From a virus (Duplodnaviria > Heunggongvirae > Uroviricota > Caudoviricetes), in IMG/VR virus record IMGVR_UViG_3300010002_000010, positions 27,949 to 91,948 of that record: a DNA stretch of 64,000 bases. One strand, written 5' to 3'. The translations under genes and the position numbers were made by a program. Position 1 is the stretch's first letter; each line of letters opens with the position of its first letter. The notes under the pieces are model-generated. The model had not been told where the DNA came from. It saw only the letters and a list, made by a program, of their open reading frames with translations, and ran no database searches. Positions 1-63,925 of the stretch are shown in pieces.

Positions 1-279
1 GATCCAGAAAGCATTCTGTTTACTAAAACATTTTATTGTCAAGTTGTTGATGGTGAAATTATTTATCGCCAGGATCTTTATGAAAAAAATTTAGCAGAAC
101 GTTTACTCGCTGAGAAAAAAACAGAAGCAACCGCTTATATTGCTTATGCCACACCACTAATTAACCGTCATCGTGATGAGCAAGAACTTGGCGATCCAAC
201 AACTTTAACAACAACTCAATACCGCGAACTTCTTCGGAAACGTAACGAAGCAACTACTATTCTTAACTCATTAATTTAA
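1..279 (+). CDS. 3' end of a CDS that runs off the window (C-terminal 92 aa, ...TTQYRELLRKRNEATTILNSLI*); unknown, possibly a late/structural protein because it precedes the lysis cassette
   Basis: Open frame from position 1 to TAA at 277-279; no start within the window. Confidence 0.45.
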   Translation, partial: DPESILFTKTFYCQVVDGEIIYRQDLYEKNLAERLLAEKKTEATAYIAYATPLINRHRDEQELGDPTTLTTTQYRELLRKRNEATTILNSLI

Positions 280-299
280 AATAAAAGGGGATAACTAAA

Positions 300-947
300 A
301 TGGCAATTGAAAATGCAATTTTACCGTTAAATCAAGCACGGATTACAGCAGGATATAAAAACCCAGCATACAAAACAGCTATGGGATTTGGTCACTTTGG
401 TGTTGACATGGCGGATGACAATCGAACAGAGCGATCTGTTTTTGCGCCATTCACCATGAAAGTCACCCATGCCGGTTATGACGATCTTATGGGATATACA
501 ATTATTGGTGTTTCCGTAAACTCAATTGATATTCATAATGGCTTAAAAGCTGGAACTCGCCGGTTAGCTATTCGCATGGCTCACCTTGATGCAATCTATG
601 TTAAAGCTGGAGACATCGTAAAACCAGAAGGAAATGCAATTGCAATTTATGGTGGCACAGGAATTTATGGTGGAGGATCAACTAACCGACATCTTCATGT
701 TGAAGTTGATACGGATATTGATTATCCAAACTATTCACCTACCCCCTCTGCCTCTGCAAATGATATTTGGCGCGGTGGTTTTGATACAACAATTCATCCT
801 ATGGATGTCTTCAAAGTCGATGCACTTGGCGAACGTGGAGTAGCTCAAAAATTTTATTATGCAATTGCTTCAGGAAACTGGGTTCTTGCAGATGATAAAG
901 CAACTCTCGATCTTAATGGAAATCTCGTAATCGCAAAAGGTTTATAA
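300..947 (+). CDS. M23-family (LytM-like) peptidase; putative peptidoglycan hydrolase
   Basis: HLHVEV (HxH zinc motif) and a Gly-rich loop; RBS aaagggg 8 nt upstream; sits in the lysis cassette. Confidence 0.55.
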   Translation: MAIENAILPLNQARITAGYKNPAYKTAMGFGHFGVDMADDNRTERSVFAPFTMKVTHAGYDDLMGYTIIGVSVNSIDIHNGLKAGTRRLAIRMAHLDAIYVKAGDIVKPEGNAIAIYGGTGIYGGGSTNRHLHVEVDTDIDYPNYSPTPSASANDIWRGGFDTTIHPMDVFKVDALGERGVAQKFYYAIASGNWVLADDKATLDLNGNLVIAKGL

Positions 948-965
948 GAAAAGGAGAAAAATAAA

Positions 966-1166
966 ATGGTAAAAATTCCAGATCGTTTTAAAAACTACTT
1001 GTTGTGGTCATCTATTGGTGCATTTGTTTTGCTGGTAGTTCAGGCATTCGGAGTAGAAATTGACGTCGGTAAATATAACGAATTGGTAAATGCTGGCCTT
1101 GGACTTTTAGTCTTGGCTGGCGTTATTAATAATCCCTCCCATGGTACAGGCTTCAAAGATCAATGA
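966..1166 (+). CDS. small two-TM holin
   Basis: 66 aa with two hydrophobic segments (LLWSSIGAFVLLVVQAFGV, LGLLVLAGVI); RBS aaggagaaaa; directly upstream of the lysin. Confidence 0.6.
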   Translation: MVKIPDRFKNYLLWSSIGAFVLLVVQAFGVEIDVGKYNELVNAGLGLLVLAGVINNPSHGTGFKDQ

Positions 1167-1207
1167 CGGGGATTTATTTCCCCTGAATTGGGGATAAGGA
1201 GGCCTAT

Positions 1208-1450
1208 ATGGAAATGGACTTTGGTCAATTTATCTCAGGAATTTTAGGACAGGAATCAATTTTCTTGTCCCTCTTCCTGTATATGTTGTGGCAAATGCTT
1301 CAAGATAAAAAGAAGCAACAGGACTTAATGACAATGCAAGCGGAAGCTCTTCAAGATCTTACCTCAAGCTTTGAGAAATTAACAGACAACCAAGAACGTA
1401 TCACCAATCGGCTAGATGATATTGAAGCTAAAATCGAAAACAAACAATAA
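1208..1450 (+). CDS. BhlA/XhlA-like holin-associated membrane protein (N-terminal TM plus C-terminal coiled coil)
   Basis: 80 aa starting MEMD, one TM then a charged coiled coil; RBS ggataaggagg; lysis-cassette context. Confidence 0.5.
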   Translation: MEMDFGQFISGILGQESIFLSLFLYMLWQMLQDKKKQQDLMTMQAEALQDLTSSFEKLTDNQERITNRLDDIEAKIENKQ

Positions 1451-1466
1451 CTAGGAGGAATTTATT

Positions 1467-2258
1467 ATGGCAGTAACACTTAACTGGTTGCTTGAAAAAG
1501 CAAATAATAAACTTAACAACAAAAACATGGACAAAGACGTTTCAGAGATCACTCGTGAAGTCATCAAAGAGATGTTCGAAAAAGGAATTTTTGTTGGTGT
1601 AGCTCAAGCTTACCGCTCGACTCATGAACAAAATGTAATCTTTTCTCAAGGCCGTACAGTCGCGCAACTTCATGCAAACGGAATTTATAATCTTCCAGGG
1701 AAACCAGGTCCAATTGTAACTCGTGCAAAAGGTGGTCAATCAAATCACAACTACGGAGTTGCGGTTGATTTGTTCCGGTTCTCTAAACATGGCGATCGCG
1801 CAATCTGGGATGTTGATCCAGAATACATGCAGGTTGTCAAAGCAATGAAAGCTCGTGGAATGAAATGGGGCGGAGATTGGAAATCATTTGAAGACAATCC
1901 TCATTTCGAGCTTTTCGATCGTGTTTCTGGTGAATCAAAACCAAAACAAAAAGACGAAAAACCCGCTTCTAAACCAGCTCCAAAACCTGTCGCGAAGCCT
2001 GCAGAAAAACCAAAACCAAAACCAGCTTCTAAACCAAAGCCTGCTGGCGATGGAAAAGCAATTGTAAAATACCCAGGGAAACCACTTGCAAAAGGATCTA
2101 AGGGTGCAGATGTTAAACGGATCCAAAATGCTCTTGGCGTAGAACCAACTGGAAACTTTGGACCAGAAACTCAAGCGAAAGTCAAAGCTTACCAAGGTCG
2201 CAAGAACTTGAAAGCTGACGGAATTGTTGGACAAGCAACTTGGAACATGCTTTTCTGA
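1467..2258 (+). CDS. endolysin: VanY/M15-type L-alanyl-D-glutamate peptidase, Pro/Lys-rich linker, C-terminal PG_binding_1 domain
   Basis: N-terminal peptidase similar to CwlK/Ply500; PAPKPVAKPAEKPKPKP linker; C-terminal motif ADGIVGQATW; RBS ctaggagga. Confidence 0.85.
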   Translation: MAVTLNWLLEKANNKLNNKNMDKDVSEITREVIKEMFEKGIFVGVAQAYRSTHEQNVIFSQGRTVAQLHANGIYNLPGKPGPIVTRAKGGQSNHNYGVAVDLFRFSKHGDRAIWDVDPEYMQVVKAMKARGMKWGGDWKSFEDNPHFELFDRVSGESKPKQKDEKPASKPAPKPVAKPAEKPKPKPASKPKPAGDGKAIVKYPGKPLAKGSKGADVKRIQNALGVEPTGNFGPETQAKVKAYQGRKNLKADGIVGQATWNMLF

Positions 2259-2302
2259 TCTGCACACGGTAAAATTCTGATTTTATTCTGCATAAATAGC
2301 CA

Positions 2303-2333
2303 TAAACAAGAGCACTCGCTCTTGTTTTACATA
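2303..2333 (+). terminator. rho-independent terminator after the lysis genes
   Basis: aacaagagc-actc-gctcttgtt hairpin followed by ttttac. Confidence 0.7.
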
Positions 2334-2350
2334 GCTTCTAGCTATTAAAT

Positions 2351-2376
2351 TTACACATACTAGTAATTAATTTACA
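2351..2376 (+). promoter_or_regulatory. sigma-A-like promoter TTTACA-N17-TACAAT for the recombinase gene
   Basis: tttacacatactagtaattaatttacaat read directly. Confidence 0.45.
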
Positions 2377-2411
2377 ATAAATAGCATTATAATATGAGAG
2401 GAAGTAAAATT

Positions 2412-3401
2412 ATGGCAAAGAAACGTAACTCATTTTTTAACGAAGAAACCTATGCGATCGTAAATAAGAAATCAAAGGATATTGTAGAGGATTATAATCT
2501 CGAACTTAAATCAAAAAAGAAAGCGGAGAAAACTATCTATCAGTATATTGCTGATATTAAAATGTTCCTCTGTTATGTTCATGATAATTTTGATGACAAG
2601 TATCTATTGGATCTTAAGAAACGAGACTTCCGCCGGTTCTTCTTGGCTCTTCAAGATTCAGGAGCTTCGTCTGCACGGATCAACCGCGTCCAATGTTCGC
2701 TTCGGAACATCTTAGAATTTTGTATGGAAGACGATGACGAATACGAAGATTACGAAATCAATGTAATGAAATCCGTCAAAGGTTTGGTAAAAGAAGAAGT
2801 CCGCGAAATCCACTTCCTACCAAATGAAGATGTCGAATTGATCCTAGATTATTTGATTGAAAAACAAAAATACCAGCAAGCTTTATACCTGGCAATTAGC
2901 TATGAATCTGCAGGTCGCCGGAATGAAGTACACCAAGTTAAAAAAACGGACTTCCTAGAAAACAACCGAACCAATATTGTTCAAGGTAAACGCGGTAAAA
3001 AATTCTCATTGCTTTATTTTGGTCGATCAAAAGAAATTGCAAAACTGTATTTCGATCAACGCGGTGAGGATAATATTGATTCTCTTTGGGTTTCTGGTGA
3101 AGGTGAAGATCTTCGGCCTGCAAAATATGAAGCTCTTTATAACTGGGTTATCACATTCCGCCGGATCCTATTGCGTTTAACTGGAAAAGATATTGAGTTC
3201 AATCCCCACAGTTTACGGCATACAAGCCTCGAGAATTATTCTGATGGATCCCATTATGTATTAAAAGAATTGGGAAAAGACAAGTTCGATATTAATGTTC
3301 TTCGTCTGATTGCAAACCATTCGGACATCTCGACTACCGCAAATTATTTGAAAAATAAAGATGAAGAAGAACTTAATAACGCTTTTGGTTTTGGATCATA
3401 A
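2412..3401 (+). CDS. tyrosine site-specific recombinase (phage-integrase family); could be an integrase, a Xer-like resolvase or an SPbeta MrpR-like recombinase-fold regulator
   Basis: C-terminal HSLRHTS (HxxR) and a Tyr in STTANYL; start moved to the ATG at 2412, which has RBS gagaggaag (the track ORF begins at 2394). Confidence 0.8.
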   Translation: MAKKRNSFFNEETYAIVNKKSKDIVEDYNLELKSKKKAEKTIYQYIADIKMFLCYVHDNFDDKYLLDLKKRDFRRFFLALQDSGASSARINRVQCSLRNILEFCMEDDDEYEDYEINVMKSVKGLVKEEVREIHFLPNEDVELILDYLIEKQKYQQALYLAISYESAGRRNEVHQVKKTDFLENNRTNIVQGKRGKKFSLLYFGRSKEIAKLYFDQRGEDNIDSLWVSGEGEDLRPAKYEALYNWVITFRRILLRLTGKDIEFNPHSLRHTSLENYSDGSHYVLKELGKDKFDINVLRLIANHSDISTTANYLKNKDEEELNNAFGFGS

Positions 3402-6975: not shown

Positions 6976-7612
6976 TTCCCGTTTTTTAAATCTTAAAGTG
7001 CCGTTTTGAAATTGTCAGAATATTCCGAATGTTCCGTTTTTAATGCCGGAAATTTTTTCAATATTCCGAATTTTCGGAATTGTCTGAATATTCATAAAAC
7101 TCGAAGTGCCGTGAATTATCAGAAAATTCTGAATATTCGATCTATTATAATTTTTAAAATATTCTAAATATTCCGACAATTTGAAAACTCGAAAGATTTA
7201 GAATTATCTAAATATTCGAAATTATCTGAACATTCGAAGTTGTCAGAATATTCCGATCATTGTAAATTGTCAGAATATTTCGAATTGATCGACAATTTGG
7301 AATTGTCAGAATATTCAGATCATTCAAAATATTCATAATTTTCCGCCGACGAACCACCGCAAATTATTTTAATATTCCGAATATTACGAATATTCCGACA
7401 ATTCTAAATAGATCGAATTTTCTGAATATTCCGAATAATTTGAATTTTCCGAATTGTCAGACTATTCAGAATTTATTGAATTAACGCCTATGAAAGAATA
7501 TTCCGACAATTCAATTTTTACAATAATCGAAATATTCCGAATATTTTGAAAATTCAAATTGATCGAAAATTCAGAATATTTGTAATATAAAATAACTATT
7601 TTAAAATGTGAA
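6976..7612. repeat. repeat array R1: about 20 copies of the GAATATTC-centred motif (full site approx TTGTCAGAATATTCTGACAA, half-site GAATATTCCGACAATTC) in both orientations
   Basis: Counted directly; contains the variant GTGCCGTGAATT and the GC island CCGCCGACGAACCACCG at 7343-7359. Confidence 0.9.
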
Positions 7613-8434: not shown

Positions 8435-8464
8435 AATGAAAGAGTCGAAAGACTCTTTTCATTT

Positions 8465-8905
8465 TGTTTTCAATTGTCAGACAATTCTGAAAATTCTGAA
8501 TCGATCATTGTTTGAATTTTTGGAATATTCAGACAATTCGAAATATTCAGGAAATTTAGAAAAGTCGTTAAATTCAGAATATTCAGATAATTCAGAATAG
8601 TCGTTAAATTCAGACAATTCAAAATGGCCGCAATATTCGAACAATTCAGAATATTCTGACAATTCGAAATGATCTAAATATTCAGACAATTCAAAATATT
8701 CTGACTAATTAGAATTGGCGCTTAATTCAGAATATTCCGACAATTACGACAATTATGAATATTCTAATAATTCGAAATATTCAGAATTTTCTGATAATTT
8801 GCGGTGGTTCGTCGGCGGGACAAATAGATCGAAGATTGAGAATATTCCGACAATTCAGAATATTGAAAAAATTCACGGCACATTACTCAGAATATTCTGA
8901 CAATT
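8465..8905. repeat. repeat array R3: about 13 copies of the GAATATTC motif; contains TAATTTGCGGTGGTTCGTCGGCGG at 8794-8818
   Basis: Counted directly; the repeat-derived ORFs 8477-8689 and 8715-8900 are artefacts. Confidence 0.9.
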
Positions 8906-8907
8906 CC

Positions 8908-8933
8908 AAAATATAAAAAATCCCAAAATGGGA
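8908..8933 (-). terminator. rho-independent terminator for 8934-9233
   Basis: atccca-aaa-tgggat with a T-run on the minus strand. Confidence 0.7.
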
Positions 8934-9719: not shown

Positions 9720-10035
9720 GTCATTTTCAATTGTCGGAATATTCTAAATAATTAGAAAGATCGAAAAATTGAATTGTCAGAATATTCTTTCACAAGCGCT
9801 AATTCACAATATTCTGACAATTCAGAATTGTCATTAAATTCAGAATATTTAGAAAATAAAAAATGTTTTTAGATCATTTTGAATATTCAGATAATTTAAA
9901 ATATTCAAAAGATTGAAAAAATTCGCGGCTCTTAAAACAGAACGTTTTGATAATTCTAAATATTCTGACAATTTCGAATATTCTGAAAATTACGAATATT
10001 CAGAAGATTGAAAAAATTCACAGCACGTTAGCTTT
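9720..10035. repeat. repeat array R4: about 9 copies of the GAATATTC motif
   Basis: Counted directly. Confidence 0.9.
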
Positions 10036-17750: not shown

Positions 17751-17770
17751 AATAAAAAGGCCGAAGCCTT

Positions 17771-18103
17771 TTATTTTTGATCTTCTTTACAAAATTCGCA
17801 ATCATCTGGACCATAAAAGACGGTATTGCATTTAATACAAATATGTGGTATATCTCTAATATCCTCATAAACTTCTAGCACCCATTCTTCTGGGATTCTA
17901 GATAAGTCTGCGGTAATATCGCTTACGGGTTTAATATTATACTCATTTAATGGAATGTAATTAGTATCAACCTCTACTATTTCTCCTGATAGTTCCCATA
18001 ATTTAATTTCGATCGAATCTTCTCCATAATATTCATTAGTTTGGTAATCTGTATGCTCTCTAATATATACTTCTGCAATATCGTCTCTTAATTTAAGCTT
18101 CAC
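17771..18103 (-). CDS. hypothetical protein (110 aa) with a C-terminal Cys4 zinc ribbon
   Basis: CIKCN...CEFC; GTG start with RBS gaggtg. Confidence 0.5.
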   Translation of the reverse strand: MKLKLRDDIAEVYIREHTDYQTNEYYGEDSIEIKLWELSGEIVEVDTNYIPLNEYNIKPVSDITADLSRIPEEWVLEVYEDIRDIPHICIKCNTVFYGPDDCEFCKEDQK

Positions 18104-18212
18104 GTTTTTTCACCTCGTTTTCTTGTTAATTTAATTATAACTTGTATCGATACGCACGTATACTTTTATTGCACAAAAAAAGGAGATATTATCTCCTAAT
18201 TAGGCAAATATT

Positions 18213-19996: not shown

Positions 19997-20368
19997 TTAA
20001 AAAATATGGCCTTCAGAGATTAAACGCTTGCGGAATTTTTTATCTAATTCCTTATATTTTTTAAATTCAGCTTCCTCTTTTTTCTTTTCTTCCGCAATTT
20101 TAATTTCATCTGCAACATCTTTTAAGATACCTGGTTTTTGATTCTCAATATCGTTGAACAAATACTTTTCATCTTTAAGTTCCCTTTTTGCTTGGCTAAA
20201 ATTTAAAACTCGAAGATCAGCTTCTTCTCTTGATGAATTCCATTGCGATCCAATAAAAATTAATTCATCTTCTGTCGTGGATAAAACAAAAACATTGTCA
20301 TTCCAGCTTTCTATTGCGAATGCAATTGTTTTTCCTTTTAGGTTGTCTAGATCGTCAATGATTTTCAT
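19997..20368 (-). CDS. hypothetical protein (123 aa)
   Basis: RBS aaaggagg. Confidence 0.55.
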   Translation of the reverse strand: MKIIDDLDNLKGKTIAFAIESWNDNVFVLSTTEDELIFIGSQWNSSREEADLRVLNFSQAKRELKDEKYLFNDIENQKPGILKDVADEIKIAEEKKKEEAEFKKYKELDKKFRKRLISEGHIF

Positions 20369-20405: not shown

Positions 20406-20546
20406 TTATTTGTTTTCTAGCCATTTAATAAGCGCATCAATATCTTTTTTATTACCCCAAGAAAATGTTTTTGGTCTTACCTCTAAAAGATATTCTTTTA
20501 GCTTTGTTTCTAAATAGTCCAAATATTCATTGGTATATTCTTTCAT
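20406..20546 (-). CDS. small hypothetical protein (46 aa); not in the ORF track
   Basis: RBS aaaggaag with 7-nt spacing; preceded by the GC-rich element at 20577-20716. Confidence 0.35.
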   Translation of the reverse strand: MKEYTNEYLDYLETKLKEYLLEVRPKTFSWGNKKDIDALIKWLENK

Positions 20547-20576
20547 GTCTATTCTTCCTTTCTTTTATAAAATTTC

Positions 20577-20716
20577 CATTTTATTCTATATAAATATATA
20601 CAGTTTGATCTGTATCGCACCATTTTAGCCCTGTATGGCTTCCGGAGCACTTTGAGTTGGCTGGTCTGTAAAATATAGCCTCCGGAGATCACACAGGACG
20701 ATCTGGAGCGAGGTTT
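20577..20716 (-). ncRNA. GC-rich structured intercistronic element E1 (~140 nt), homologous to 42996-43135
   Basis: Shared blocks TTATTCT..., TAGCCCTGTATGGC and CACACAGGACGATCTGGAGC; internal inverted repeats (TCCGGAG/CTCCGGA); stands out in AT-rich DNA. Confidence 0.5.
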
Positions 20717-21319
20717 TTATTTAAGTGTCATTTTTTCAAAACATTTGTCACAAATTGACAAATATGATGATTTTGCCTCGAGGAAAGTATCGCCATCTGT
20801 TACAACATGACCATCAATGATCCGAGCATTGTTTTCGGCGTAATCCAAGCAGTCTGGCATTTGACACTCTGTTACAATGAACTCAATTTTAGGTCGAGCC
20901 TTAATCAAGGTAGTAATTGCTGGGAATTGCTCATTTTTAAAATCTCGATCTAATCCATAAATCTTTGTATTAAGATTTTTAATTTTTGTCCATTCAATAA
21001 TAATCTCCATTTGATCTGGTGTTAAAAATTGAGCTTCATCAATTAAAACGGTTGAATTTTCTTTGATTCTTGAAAGATACACATTTAAAAAAACAACGCC
21101 TTCTTTTGAATTAATTGGAATGGCGGCGACTTCTCTTCCGTCTCGAGAAGTAATTTTTGTAAAATCAAGTGATACACTGTATGAATCTAGCGATCCAGCA
21201 AACAACCAAATCATTTCTATTTTGGTGTTTTTAGAAAGATCTGTTAAATAATCAATTAATTGCTTTGTCTTTCCCGCGCCCATTAAACCTGTAATGAAAT
21301 GTAAATTTTTGTTTTCCAT
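20717..21319 (-). CDS. tdk: thymidine kinase
   Basis: P-loop GLMGAGKT, VLIDEAQF and C-terminal Cys pairs; start set to the ATG at 21319 (7 nt from ggag). Confidence 0.85.
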   Translation of the reverse strand: MENKNLHFITGLMGAGKTKQLIDYLTDLSKNTKIEMIWLFAGSLDSYSVSLDFTKITSRDGREVAAIPINSKEGVVFLNVYLSRIKENSTVLIDEAQFLTPDQMEIIIEWTKIKNLNTKIYGLDRDFKNEQFPAITTLIKARPKIEFIVTECQMPDCLDYAENNARIIDGHVVTDGDTFLEAKSSYLSICDKCFEKMTLK

Positions 21320-21403
21320 CATCAATCTCCTATCAAAGTGCTTTATTCCTTACATTTATATTATACTTGATCTTTCAAAATGAGAAAGAAAAATAAAAAA
21401 AAA

Positions 21404-21580
21404 TTAGAGGATTTTCTTTTCCTCTAACTTTTTTACAATTTCATCTGGATCAACAGGTAGGATCTCATTATAAACGCGGAAATACCTCGTTCTCAAGCAT
21501 TTTACATATTCATCATAAGGTTGATCCTTTGTCATTATACCTTTGTTTTTCATTTGTTCAATTCTTTCCCGTGAGTTCAT
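21404..21580 (-). CDS. small hypothetical protein (58 aa); not in the ORF track
   Basis: Strong RBS gaggagg with 7-nt spacing; a terminator hairpin overlaps its stop codon. Confidence 0.4.
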   Translation of the reverse strand: MNSRERIEQMKNKGIMTKDQPYDEYVKCLRTRYFRVYNEILPVDPDEIVKKLEEKKIL

Positions 21581-22811: not shown

Positions 22812-23438
22812 TTATTCTAAATATGAAGATTTAATAATGTCTTGGAGATGAGTTTTTAAGACTCGAATCCGAGAATGAGCCGCCTGTGTGGTAATGCCCT
22901 TAGCCTCCGCATAATCGACAACGGCATTTTTCTTTCGATCAAGGATCAACTCGAGAAGTTCCTTGTCTTTGTCTTTGATGAGAGCGTTTTCAATAATGGA
23001 CAATAGCTCTTTTCCATCATATGTTGATTCAACTGAATCTGATCCATCAATCAAAAGATCTTGTAACTCATCAGCAGACTCTGCTTCCGAAGTAACAACT
23101 TCTTTATTTAGTGAAATTTCTTTTCCGTGATCTTCTCGTTTTTTAGCTTTTGTTGGCTGAAGCACCTTGTCTCGGGCGCGATTCATTCTGTGGTGTAAGT
23201 AAGTTGAAAAACAATTTCCGGTAGTTGAATCATACCGATCATAGGCTACCCAAAGTTGCAAGAAAAATTCTTGTCGCATGTCTTCTTCATTGTATCGATT
23301 GAAAAACATGTTCTTATTCATATCGTGAACATTTTTCTCAATAAGAGGAATAAACATTTCGTGGACTTCTTCATATGTCAAATCTTTTAAAACTTTCTTG
23401 CCATCTTCCATAATGTAAAGCTTCTTTGTTTGATCCAT
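22812..23438 (-). CDS. sigma-70 family RNA polymerase sigma factor
   Basis: Region 2 (FFLQLWVAYDRYD...FSTYLHHRM) and a C-terminal region 4 HTH (GITTQAAHSRIRVLKTHL). Confidence 0.8.
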   Translation of the reverse strand: MDQTKKLYIMEDGKKVLKDLTYEEVHEMFIPLIEKNVHDMNKNMFFNRYNEEDMRQEFFLQLWVAYDRYDSTTGNCFSTYLHHRMNRARDKVLQPTKAKKREDHGKEISLNKEVVTSEAESADELQDLLIDGSDSVESTYDGKELLSIIENALIKDKDKELLELILDRKKNAVVDYAEAKGITTQAAHSRIRVLKTHLQDIIKSSYLE

Positions 23439-23791
23439 CGTTTATTTTCCCCGTTTCGCGCAGTTGGACGATCTCATTTCATGATCGGAAGCTTGATCGT
23501 GGCTAATTGATCCTGATCTGTTCTTATCAAAATGACTGAAAGCGACTGCTATTTTTATTTTTAATCGGCCTTTTATTTTAAAACGGTTTATCCGTCATAG
23601 CCACAATTAATAAAAAATTCTTGCAGGTTTGGTCAATTTTGATCTTCAAACCTACAAAAATTTTACTATAGCTTAGTCGTTTTAACGATTTCGAAATATT
23701 AAACCTCATAAATTAATAATAAGCCTTTTGACTGCCTTTGTATATAGTAATCAGCTAACTTTTTAAAACAAAGTGAAATATTTTTATAGCT

Positions 23792-41555: not shown

Positions 41556-41572
41556 AAAACCTCCGAAGAGGT

Positions 41573-42058
41573 TTATAAATCTCTTAAAATTTCAAGATAG
41601 GTCTCCTTACGAAGACGAAGCCGCTCTTTTAAGACCATATTTTTTTCGTGTTTAAGATCAACGTTGACCTCTTCAATTTTCTGTCTAAGCTTTCTTTCAA
41701 CATTTGTTTCTGATTTTAGCGGTGAATCCCAGTTAATGGCCACCAAATTTAATTCCAAATCTAGTTGGGCAATTGCAAAAGAATTATGAGCTTCAAACTG
41801 CTCGGTAAGTTTTAGTAATTTTTCTTTTAGCTTAAAATGTTCTACTTCCGAATTTTCAAACTGTTGGGCTTTTGATAGATCGACTGTTGTTGTAAAAGTG
41901 ACATGACCAAGCGGATCCATGTTAATTTGTTTTACAAAATGGGGCTTTGATGAAGTTGCGGAATAAAACAATACAATAAACTGATTTCGTTTTTCAAATT
42001 GTTCTTTTACTTTTAGAAACCCGGTTAATACTTGGGCTGTTTTTTCAACATGACTCAT
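41573..42058 (-). CDS. hypothetical protein (161 aa)
   Basis: RBS ggaggt; ATGA overlap with the upstream gene. Confidence 0.5.
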   Translation of the reverse strand: MSHVEKTAQVLTGFLKVKEQFEKRNQFIVLFYSATSSKPHFVKQINMDPLGHVTFTTTVDLSKAQQFENSEVEHFKLKEKLLKLTEQFEAHNSFAIAQLDLELNLVAINWDSPLKSETNVERKLRQKIEEVNVDLKHEKNMVLKERLRLRKETYLEILRDL

Positions 42059-42678: not shown

Positions 42679-42975
42679 TTATTGAATATCTTTTTTGTAT
42701 AATTCATATTTATCTTCAAAATCCCTTGAAACAAATTTCGAGGCTTTTTGTATTCTATTGAACCAATAATCAGATATTGCATTAACAACTAATCTCGCAT
42801 TTTGTCTTACTAAAACACCTTTTTCATTCTTATGGGGTAAAGATATATTTCCCGCTTTATTTGCTTTTTTAAGTTTTTCTAAACAGTATAAGCATTCTTC
42901 TTCCATTTCTGATTGAAAAGGATCAAAGACTTCCAACATGTCATTTGTCATAAAATCTCTAAGTTTAGATTCCAT
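42679..42975 (-). CDS. hypothetical protein (98 aa)
   Basis: RBS gaggtg; preceded by the GC-rich element E2. Confidence 0.5.
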   Translation of the reverse strand: MESKLRDFMTNDMLEVFDPFQSEMEEECLYCLEKLKKANKAGNISLPHKNEKGVLVRQNARLVVNAISDYWFNRIQKASKFVSRDFEDKYELYKKDIQ

Positions 42976-42995
42976 TATTACACCTCGTAAAATTT

Positions 42996-43135
42996 ATATT
43001 TTATTCTGCATACGGTGTTTTAAATTGAGCCAGATCGCGTTAAACTAGCCCTGTATGACCTCCTAGCGGCCCTGAACCACTTCATTTAAGTTCAGGACTG
43101 TTAGGAAGCCACACATCGCGATCTGGAAGCAATTT
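42996..43135 (-). ncRNA. GC-rich structured intercistronic element E2, homolog of 20577-20716
   Basis: TAGCCCTGTATGACCTCC..., CCTGAAC/GTTCAGG stem and CACACATCGCGATCTGGAAGC shared with E1; CCAGATCGCG/CGCGATCTGG inverted repeat. Confidence 0.5.
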
Positions 43136-43140
43136 TATTT

Positions 43141-43611
43141 TTAAATGCGGTTTTCTGGTTTTTCTTCATGATAATTGTATATTTCTTTATACTCGTAATT
43201 TTCAATTACATAAATTGACATAACAACATCATTATCTTTGGAAACATACGATCGGCCTTTTTCATAATTCTCGATTGAGGCGCAATGCTCTCCGCATTTA
43301 TAAGTCGTTCTACAAGGTTCTCCCGTTTCTTTATTTTTTAAAATAATGTGTAGTGCAGAATACATTCTTTTTCTTGAATCCAAATTTACTGGTAACCATT
43401 CTTTTTTCCCGCTGACATTATTTTTTAAAATTTTTAAATTCTTTTCTTCACGAAGATCTCCTAAACTACTAACGTAGATTTCTCCAGCATTCGATTTTCC
43501 TAAAATAATTTGAACAGTATTCCCATTATCTTGAACATATTGAAAACCATATTCAAATTGCTTTTCTTCCATTCCTTTAATAATTTCGCTAAAAGTCATT
43601 TGCAATGCCAT
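43141..43611 (-). CDS. hypothetical protein (156 aa)
   Basis: RBS aggagga. Confidence 0.55.
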   Translation of the reverse strand: MALQMTFSEIIKGMEEKQFEYGFQYVQDNGNTVQIILGKSNAGEIYVSSLGDLREEKNLKILKNNVSGKKEWLPVNLDSRKRMYSALHIILKNKETGEPCRTTYKCGEHCASIENYEKGRSYVSKDNDVVMSIYVIENYEYKEIYNYHEEKPENRI

Positions 43612-43638: not shown

Positions 43639-43668
43639 TATTATACTTACAAATTCAGATCTGTAAAA
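43639..43668 (-). promoter_or_regulatory. conserved phage promoter (TATAATATAAaagtaag family)
   Basis: cttacttttatattatacttac read directly; terminator ataagcc-cgaa-ggcttat at 43683-43707. Confidence 0.55.
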
Positions 43669-43704
43669 GAAAAAAGCAAAAAAAATAAGCCCGAAGGCTT
43701 ATTC

Positions 43705-43998
43705 TTATCTTTTTGTTAATGTTACCATGTATTTAAGAGCAGTACTCATTTTTTTAACAGGTCGAACACCAACCGGAATGTTGTCATTAGATCCTGAGTA
43801 AACATCTTCATAAACACAGAAGTTGTCTTTTTCATCTTCTGGGCACTCAATTACAAATGAGCGGTTGCCGTAGAAAAACATTACAGTTTCATCAATCGAT
43901 ATTACTTGTGTAAAACAATGTCCGTTGGCTCCTTCTTTTAAAAGTTTTTCTCCTTTCTCTTTGATCTGTTCAACAATGTTTCTTGTGTAGTCTGTCAT
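43705..43998 (-). CDS. hypothetical protein (~97 aa)
   Basis: Start at the ATG at 43998 with RBS ggagga; has a long GC-rich 5' leader. Confidence 0.5.
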   Translation of the reverse strand: MTDYTRNIVEQIKEKGEKLLKEGANGHCFTQVISIDETVMFFYGNRSFVIECPEDEKDNFCVYEDVYSGSNDNIPVGVRPVKKMSTALKYMVTLTKR

Positions 43999-44019
43999 TT
44001 TAATTCCTCCAATTAATGT

Positions 44020-44100
44020 ATTTAGGAGCATCTTCCGTCTTGGCGTCAATCTAGGTCGCTCAGGCTAATTGCCGTCGTGGCGTACTCCGCTCGGAAAGAT
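44020..44100 (-). ncRNA. GC-rich structured 5' leader between the TGTACA promoter and the 43998 start codon
   Basis: ~80-nt GC-rich block (ggcgtcaatctaggtcgctcaggc...gccgtcgtggcgtactccgctcgg) downstream of the -10 at 44127. Confidence 0.4.
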
Positions 44101-44126
44101 CTTATTTGCTTGCTCTCTATATATTA

Positions 44127-63888: not shown

Positions 63889-63925
63889 TATTATACTTAA
63901 AAAAAAGCATTTGTAAAGGTCATTT
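63889..63925 (-). promoter_or_regulatory. conserved phage promoter TTTACA-N-TATAATATAAcag reading leftward into a ~560-nt region with no ORF
   Basis: caactgttatattatacttaaaaaaaagcatttgtaaaggtca read directly. Confidence 0.5.

Follow-up and report, generated by a model that had tools for sequence, protein, structure and literature searches.

Structured RNA sites in phage messages have been described in several systems. The putL and putR sites of HK022 and the nutL and nutR sites of lambda are paired antitermination sites, and T7 has about ten RNase III sites. The RNase III hairpins of T7 (R0.3-R18.5) and SP82 (sites A-C) lie between the cistrons of polycistronic early transcripts, with several homologous copies per genome. 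Those T7 and SP82 substrates that possess internal loops undergo a single cut, on the downstream side (PMC1935012). The early mRNA of SP82 is a target of the Bacillus subtilis RNase III, which is an enzyme of narrow specificity (PMC4838370) and whose classic substrates are stable stem-loops with small internal bulges. In T4-type phages, the elements named PeSLs combine a stem-loop, a conserved AT-rich start signal and the beginning of a small ORFan gene, with its Shine-Dalgarno sequence and ATG (PMC2839356, PMC4122927). Here we describe two homologous elements of 140 nt, E1 (20577-20716) and E2 (42996-43135), on the minus strand of a stretch of 64,000 nt from the IMG/VR record IMGVR_UViG_3300010002_000010, in the following referred to as the window. 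The source is an uncultivated Firmicute siphophage of ~92 kb. Each element has two parts, a rod-like hairpin of ~97 nt and a separate AT-rich palindromic module.

The E1 rod (20615..20711, minus strand) is an imperfect hairpin of ~97 nt with a minimum free energy of -38 to -43 kcal/mol, and the E2 rod (43030..43126, minus strand), also of ~97 nt, reaches -52 to -55 kcal/mol. Compared with shuffled sequences, the z-scores of the sense strand are -4.8 for E1 and -6.3 for E2, and those of the antisense strand -1.4 and -4.0. When all 110-nt windows of both strands were folded (~12,800 local folds with a mean of -17.3 kcal/mol and a standard deviation of 5.1), E2 ranked first with -52 kcal/mol and E1 second with -38 kcal/mol. 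The structure of the rods is thus far beyond chance. The sense fold is also better than the antisense fold by 3-10 kcal/mol in all eight sequences now at hand, which are E1, E2 and their orthologs described below; the antisense folds are weaker because the G-U pairs of the sense strand turn into A-C mismatches. The inverted repeats that were quoted in the preliminary description of this DNA are present in both elements, and together they make up one long imperfect hairpin.

Each rod contains 20-35 stacked base pairs, which are interrupted by internal loops. In E2, the basal helix P1 (CCAGAUCGCG/CGCGAUCUGG, 10 bp) is followed by an asymmetric 1x12 internal loop, the 3' side of which carries GGGCUAGUUUAA. 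Above this loop are a 14-bp helix (UGUGUGGCUUCCUA/UAGGAGGUCAUACA) and then a 10-bp apical helix around CCUGAAC/GUUCAGG, so that ~25 further stacked base pairs are found beside the 10-bp helix around the 1x12 loop. An optional extension, AAAUUG/CAAUUU, makes the structure span 43021-43135. In E1, the base consists of the pairs UCGC/GCGA and CCA/UGG, followed by a 4x5 internal loop, a 10-bp helix (GUCCUGUGUG/CAUACAGGGC), a 3x3 loop, the 7-bp helix UCCGGAG/CUCCGGA and a poorly paired apex. E1 therefore amounts to 10 and 7 bp plus the basal pairs; it retains UGUGUG/CAUACA and UCCGG/CCGGA, and its base and apex are weaker than those of E2.

That the two elements are homologous, as first noticed from the sequence alone, is confirmed by a gap-free alignment over ~170 nt, and their sequences mark them as true paralogs. 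The blocks reported as common to both are indeed shared, namely TCCAGATCG-N3-TGTGTG, GGA-N3-CATACAGGGCTA, GCGAT and AGAATAAAAT-NN-AAATTTTA. Within the window, the 12-mer CATACAGGGCTA and the 18-nt block TCCAGATCG-N3-TGTGTG have exact matches only at E1 and E2. The GC content had been overestimated. Instead of ~55%, we measured 42-44% over the two intervals and 50-51.5% in the rod cores, which, though below the claimed value, is well above the 33.6% of the AT-rich window.

The surroundings of both elements follow one plan, and here the first account was accurate: both start right after the stop codon of an upstream minus-strand gene and end at the ribosome-binding site of a small gene, and these small genes (20406-20546 after E1 and 42679-42975 after E2) are unrelated to each other. 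The upstream gene of E1 (20717..21325, minus strand) codes for thymidine kinase, with Pfam PF00265 assigned to its homologs; it is the first cistron of its unit, and its stop codon abuts E1. That of E2 (43141..43611, minus strand) codes for 156 amino acids without family assignment and is likewise a first cistron, with its stop codon 5-14 nt before the E2 stem. The E1 unit begins at a sigma-A-type promoter (21357..21390, minus strand; -10 box TATAATATAAATGTAAG at 21365), which is preceded by a U-tract terminator (21397-21434), and it extends to terminators at 18181-18197 and 17755-17772. The E2 unit begins at a promoter of the same type (43640..43667, minus strand; TTTACA-16-TATAAT with the stereotyped AAGTATAATATAAAAGTAAG, -10 box at 43645) behind a U-tract terminator at 43681-43706, and it extends to a terminator at 41557-41574. 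In both units the rod begins 1-14 nt past the stop codon of the first gene, ahead of a ribosome-binding site, and precedes a run of small genes without family assignment. The same layout of promoter and terminator occurs in relatives, on the contigs L020 and L021 for the E2 unit and on L023, L024 and L026 for the E1 unit. No terminator is predicted between promoter and rod in either unit, so the rod is part of the mRNA.

Both promoters are strong ones of the host sigma-A type and belong to a larger minus-strand set, which comprises at least 18 members of nearly the same sequence (cTTTACw-N17-TATAATATA, also written cTTTACw-N17-aAGTATAATATAaAAGTAAG), with -10 boxes at 63895, 59719, 58556, 54693, 54608, 50946, 46423, 43645, 41530, 39273, 36315, 35293, 31572, 26688, 22741, 21365, 17724 and 15122. 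Most of them stand directly behind a canonical U-tract terminator, which splits the early region into many short units. The canonical terminators of this phage have U-tracts of 5-9 U. The sense-strand 3' flanks of the rods are CUCAAUUUAAAACACC in E2 and AUACAGAUCAAACUG in E1, and the terminator scan calls no terminator at either rod. As a sense-strand U-tract is lacking, the rods are not canonical terminators, which contradicts the suggestion of an intrinsic attenuator in its canonical form. Another candidate that was rejected is coding by read-through of the thymidine kinase stop codon. The frame is open for 55 codons past the TAA, across the whole of E1 (20549-20719, minus strand), and likewise on L023 and L024, hence in three phages, but it is broken on L026, and E2 has in-frame stop codons. 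The inspected differences in E1 alter the amino acid and the substitutions are not coding-like, so that the open frame looks accidental.

Contigs of related phages were reached by protein searches with the genes upstream of E1 and E2. Four related phages carry both rods at syntenic positions identical to those in the window phage, which makes five phages in all: E2 orthologs follow the 156-aa gene on L020, L021 and L022, and E1 orthologs follow the thymidine kinase gene on L023, L024/L025 and L026. Two samples supplied both copies. The thymidine kinases of these phages are only 65-69% identical. The orthologs group by position and not by genome, which indicates that the duplication predates these phages; judging from these sequences, it appears to be ancient, with both copies retained since. 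Concerted evolution of the paralogs, which was considered as well, was not seen.

Among close relatives, the rods are 97.5-99% identical, compared with 86-93% for the flanking genes. In the comparison of the window with L024, E1 has 13 differences, all of them in loops, the apex or the flanks and none in a helix. On L020 and L021, E2 shows few changes, and these are concentrated in its 3' internal loop. In an alignment of the eight sequences, 91.6% of the cells of 15 pairs can pair, compared with 38-52% when the partner is slid. Covariation had been proposed as a check, and compensatory changes do exist at three pairs (GC/UA, AU/GC and CG/GC), one of which is a change from G-C to A-U within the E1 lineage on L026; with few independent events, this supports the fold but is statistically not strong. 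The lower stem holds the blocks that are common to the paralogs (CCAGAUC, UGUGUG/CAUACA and UCC/GGA). The sequences indicate that selection acts on a long and largely double-stranded rod whose lower stem is conserved in sequence, and not on a precise tertiary fold.

Outside this group of phages no further copy was found. A search of the window against Rfam 15, which includes riboswitches, EAR and small RNAs, gave no match at gathering thresholds, and a relaxed search at both loci (E<=10) gave only sub-threshold chance matches, such as mir-3747 with 23 bits against a gathering threshold of 63. BLAST searches of GenBank phages, run in a near and a distant mode, detected homologs neither of the two elements nor of their surroundings. 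The pattern TGTGTG-N35-65-CATACAGGGCTA in IMG/VR and a 21-base pattern in GTDB genomes met only chance matches in coding DNA of unrelated organisms, and a 23-base pattern made from the invariants of the eight sequences met none in IMG/VR or the JGI metagenome contigs, a set evidently without the source sample. A covariance model of E1 and E2 detected no copy in the Geobacillus phage GR1, in eight IMG/VR relatives (43-61% identity of DnaB or topoisomerase) or in a further 10 kb of tail genes, and the distant relatives contain no non-homologous rod of comparable stability. E1 and E2, the only two copies in 64 kb, are a genuine, conserved and lineage-restricted pair of structured RNAs and form a new sequence family. 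The generic part of the preliminary description, a cis-acting structured RNA, is hence well supported by the fold stability, the sense-strand bias, the syntenic retention and the stem-sparing changes, while computation does not decide between the specific functions that it listed.

The second part of each element is situated 25-30 nt past the rod and reads TAT(A/G)(T/C)AGA-ATAAAAT-N4-ATTTTA(T/C), directly followed by a ribosome-binding site and ATG. In E1 (20568..20592, minus strand) it is TATAGA-ATAAAAT-GGAA-ATTTTA, followed by the start of the 46-aa gene, and in E2 (42987..43012, minus strand) TATGCAGA-ATAAAAT-ATAA-ATTTTAC, followed by the ribosome-binding site GAGGTG and the ATG of the 98-aa gene. 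ATAAAAT..AAATTTTA is invariant in all eight sequences. A third module (2269..2294, minus strand; TATGCAGAATAAAATCAGAATTTTAC), located between the endolysin and integrase genes, has no rod; it adjoins a simple bidirectional terminator hairpin (~2300-2330) in place of the rod, agrees with the E2 module at 23 of 27 bases, and its site is identical in L027-L029. The core TAAAAT-N4-ATTTTA occurs in six exact copies in the window (2270, 7588, 20568, 32818, 42988 and 54877), where 0.14 are expected, and in eight in GR1 (L015 at 6617, 17361, 27051 and 37318; L016 at 1009, 7129, 14428 and 22567). The usual order, as found in GR1 and at the window sites 7588 and 2270, is terminator, palindrome, ribosome-binding site and ATG, and in GR1 the palindrome can also precede early promoters of the type TTTACGTTTT-N9-CAGATATAAAAA. 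No acceptable sigma-A -35/-10 pair was found in the 3' module on either strand. The palindrome is a separate DNA-level motif that is more widespread than the rod. It is a candidate for a phage-specific promoter or operator in general use within this phage group, with the phage sigma factor or a dimeric regulator as its possible reader.

Directly downstream of both cassettes the gene content varies. The 46-aa gene (20406-20546, minus strand) is present only in the window phage, and on L024, L026 and apparently L023 the E1 palindrome is directly followed by the ribosome-binding site of the 123-aa gene that is located at 19997-20368 in the window. The genes that follow the E2 palindrome are replaced by unrelated ones on L021 and L022.

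What do the rods do? We favour, with a probability of roughly 40%, a role in early polycistronic mRNA as a double-stranded RNA element that acts in cis, probably as a site of RNase III-type processing and of 3' stabilisation. The rod would be cleaved by RNase III of the host or by another nuclease specific for double-stranded RNA, in the manner of the intercistronic hairpins of T7 and SP82. Given the internal loops in the stems, of which the 12-nt 3' loop of E2 is the clearest, a single cut on the 3' side of the rod would be expected. The upstream message, that of thymidine kinase or of the 156-aa gene, would keep a protective 3' hairpin, and the small ORFan genes downstream would become an RNA of their own with a different fate. 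Rod and AT palindrome together form a composite gene-boundary cassette. As in RNase III sites, the rods lie between cistrons within a transcript and comprise about two or more helical turns that are broken by an internal loop. The lower-stem blocks shared by the paralogs would fit a sequence-selective enzyme. Position in the transcript, helix length, internal loops, strand specificity and selection on the stems are shown by the sequences; the cleavage and its consequences are inferred.

The likeness to the T7 and SP82 sites concerns the intercistronic location in polycistronic early transcripts, the homologous copies within one genome, the stacked helices with internal loops including an asymmetric 3' loop in E2, and the lack of a U-tract. 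In contrast to those sites of ~50-60 nt, the rods are ~97 nt long, they have only two copies, and no sequence similarity to described sites was found. Lambda sib offers a further parallel, being a hairpin downstream of a gene; by analogy, RNase III cleavage at the rods would set the stability of the upstream message. However, sib makes use of an interplay between the terminator and antiterminated read-through, and no such arrangement is visible at the rods.

Several observations weigh against a processing site. Only two sites occur per genome, as against about ten in T7. Independent events of covariation are very few. E1 and E2 of the window have the same loop, GGGCUA, which looked like a recognition motif, but it is not conserved, as the orthologs have AGGUUA, GAGCUA, GAGC-A and GGGCCA. 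The basal helix pairs differently in E1 and E2: L022 and L026 form CCAGAU/AUCUGG directly, E2 lengthens it by CGCG/CGCG, and in E1 it is degenerate. All eight sequences also have a U-rich tract behind the hairpin on the antisense strand. Finally, in GR1 and at two other window sites it is a terminator that precedes the palindrome, so the rod fills a terminator slot, which would suit the role of an attenuator or insulator equally well.

Such an attenuator or insulator would have to be of a non-canonical kind, combined with an internal promoter or operator in the palindrome, and we regard it as the main alternative, possible but rather unlikely. The rod would stop or pause most transcription from the sigma-A promoter after the first, immediate-early gene, and the downstream ORFan genes would be expressed from the palindrome at another time, a temporal switch like the PeSL cassettes of T4-type phages. 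Besides the terminator slot, this is suggested by the enrichment of the palindrome (6 copies versus 0.14 expected, and 8 in GR1), by the phage's own sigma factor (22812-23438) and by the shift in gene content right after the palindrome, as it is seen around PeSLs, beside which genes are inserted or replaced (PMC2839356). Both systems also have ~100 or more conserved nucleotides, with a stem-loop, an AT-rich start signal and the start of a small ORFan gene in the same order. But the stem-loops of PeSLs are short G/C-tract terminators with promoters of sigma-70 consensus, whereas the palindrome is not sigma-A-like, lacks a -35 partner and is only a putative promoter, and the sigma-A consensus promoters of this phage form a family separate from it. 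PeSLs occur in dozens per genome, compared with two rods here, and in the present case the host is a Firmicute and the phage siphovirus-like. Moreover, a terminator needs neither sequence blocks conserved between paralogs nor a rod of ~97 nt, and canonical U-tract terminators are used everywhere else in this phage, while no sense U-tract follows the rods.

The rods could also be bound by a phage or host protein that renders the polymerase resistant to terminators, as put or EAR does, or that controls the translation or decay of the neighbouring cistrons. Two homologous cis-acting copies, each located in an early operon just behind its first gene, bring to mind putL/putR and nutL/nutR as well as EAR of Bacillales, the lower-stem sequence is conserved between old paralogs, and terminators lie downstream in both units (41557-41574 for E2; 18181-18197 and 17755-17772 for E1). 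Against this stands that put consists of two short stem-loops with precise bulges and nut of boxA and boxB, whereas the rods are single long helices with drifting loops; their internal loops and basal helix vary freely, unlike those of RNAs with a precise tertiary fold. There is no Rfam match, EAR included, no candidate for the binding protein was identified, and all neighbouring genes lack a family assignment. We consider this unlikely, and hold equally doubtful the more far-reaching idea that the rod belongs to an undescribed class of phage cis-regulatory RNA which recruits a phage or host protein and, together with the palindrome, would provide a two-part temporal switch and a portable cassette boundary in Firmicute siphophages. 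If the function lay on the plus strand instead, the rod might be an intrinsic terminator against antisense transcription, or the 3' end of a small RNA of ~130 nt begun near the palindrome. The U-rich tract mentioned above (e.g. UUUUUAUUU or UUUUAUUUUU) is found within 2-6 nt of the rod on that strand, and the palindrome copy at 2270 is followed by a genuine terminator on the plus strand. Yet the antisense folds are weaker in all eight sequences, no conserved sigma-A-like promoter exists on the plus strand, the spacer between stem and U-tract is ~6 nt in E2 and L026, and the A-rich tract includes the upstream stop codon and may be a mere AT-rich spacer; this is the most improbable of the explanations. 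Nearly as improbable is a repeat that acts only at the DNA level or has no function, be it a MITE-like insertion, a conserved linker for homologous recombination or a single-stranded DNA hairpin, for example a priming signal. Both copies are flanked on either side by direct repeats of 7-8 nt, AATAAAA(T), which could be a target-site duplication, mosaic junctions are located just downstream, and the Logan contig L023 breaks right after the palindrome. The flanking repeat is, however, low-complexity A/T sequence and overlaps the stop-codon region and a palindrome arm, and the rods are better conserved than the neighbouring genes, with substitutions that spare the stems. Both sites are occupied in all five phages and no empty site was seen, the orthologs group by position, and no additional copies were found in the window, the 10 kb of tail genes, the distant relatives, IMG/VR, JGI or GTDB. 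The mobile element of the preliminary description is contradicted by the same facts, as there are two copies only, at sites fixed in all relatives, with neither presence/absence polymorphism nor copies at non-homologous sites. A recombinase site was also considered; it is made less likely by the fact that the two copies are direct and lie 22 kb apart, with essential genes between them. A single-strand origin of the ssoA type was considered as well; the phage encodes its own helicase and primase.

If the rods are indeed processing or stability sites, the dissection of operons by RNase III in the style of T7 and SP82 would extend to uncultivated Firmicute phages related to GR1, and the two rods would offer a defined, conserved pair of substrates for probing the narrow specificity of Gram-positive RNase III. 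The occurrence of rod and palindrome where small genes come, go or are swapped suggests how accessory cassettes may stay insulated, both transcriptionally and post-transcriptionally. The practical gain is modest, as the element is lineage-restricted and so far limited to five phage genomes.

Two leaders, at 44020-44100 and 23440-23560, had been regarded as similar to E1 and E2. Neither matches the covariance model, their folds are no better than those of shuffled sequences (z = -0.65 and +1.48, respectively), and all they have in common is one 9-mer, CAATTAGCC. The first of them (44010-44105, minus strand) is a GC-rich 5' leader behind an atypical promoter, TGTACA-17-TATAAT, and upstream of a 114-aa gene; it is nearly invariant on L020, L021 and L022 despite its shuffle-level fold. 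The second, at ~23500, is the leader of the sigma-factor gene. The rod loop GGCUA(A/G)UU is complementary over 6-8 nt to this 9-mer, probably by chance. A pairing in trans between the loop GGCUA(A/G) and the shared CAAUUAGCC of the leaders was considered and is treated as chance, as the 9-mer is absent from the sigma-gene leader of L024. Also upstream of the sigma-factor gene, a long hairpin (23581-23690, minus strand) reaches -34 kcal/mol in the window, and equally stable hairpins are found at the matching place on L024 (7641-7750) and in GR1 (L015 37451-37560).

The DnaB-type helicase of the phage shares 66% identity with its counterpart in GR1 and 53-55% with those of Enterococcus siphophages of 86 kb. 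The gene order is that of GR1, with ribonucleotide reductase, flavodoxin, helicase, primase, dUTPase, guanylate kinase, RusA, sigma factor, amidoligase, thymidine kinase and topoisomerase. The minus strand (3436-64000) carries the early and replication genes, and the plus strand (1-3401) the end of the late operon, with tail genes, an M23 peptidase, the endolysin (1467-2258) and the integrase (2394-3401). No tRNA or transfer-messenger RNA genes were found in the window. JGI and Logan assemblies also contain the same phage, with a longest contig of 91,948 nt, and contig ends coincide with the right end of the window.

Some features of the base composition may be added. Over the whole window, GATC is 2.6-fold over-represented (509 versus 196 expected) and CGCG 2-fold, and CTAG, GTAC and TATA reach only 0.34-0.44 of expectation. 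Dozens of AT-rich repeats with a 9-bp phase, of the type TCAGAATATTC / TGACAATTC, form three clusters (7000-7590, 8460-8910 and 9720-10020) in a stretch that has 28% GC and is nearly free of open reading frames. This stretch is a candidate for a replication origin, a partition site or an array for the binding of a regulator, and the palindrome TAAAAT-N4-ATTTTA at 7588-7603 borders it, just after a terminator.

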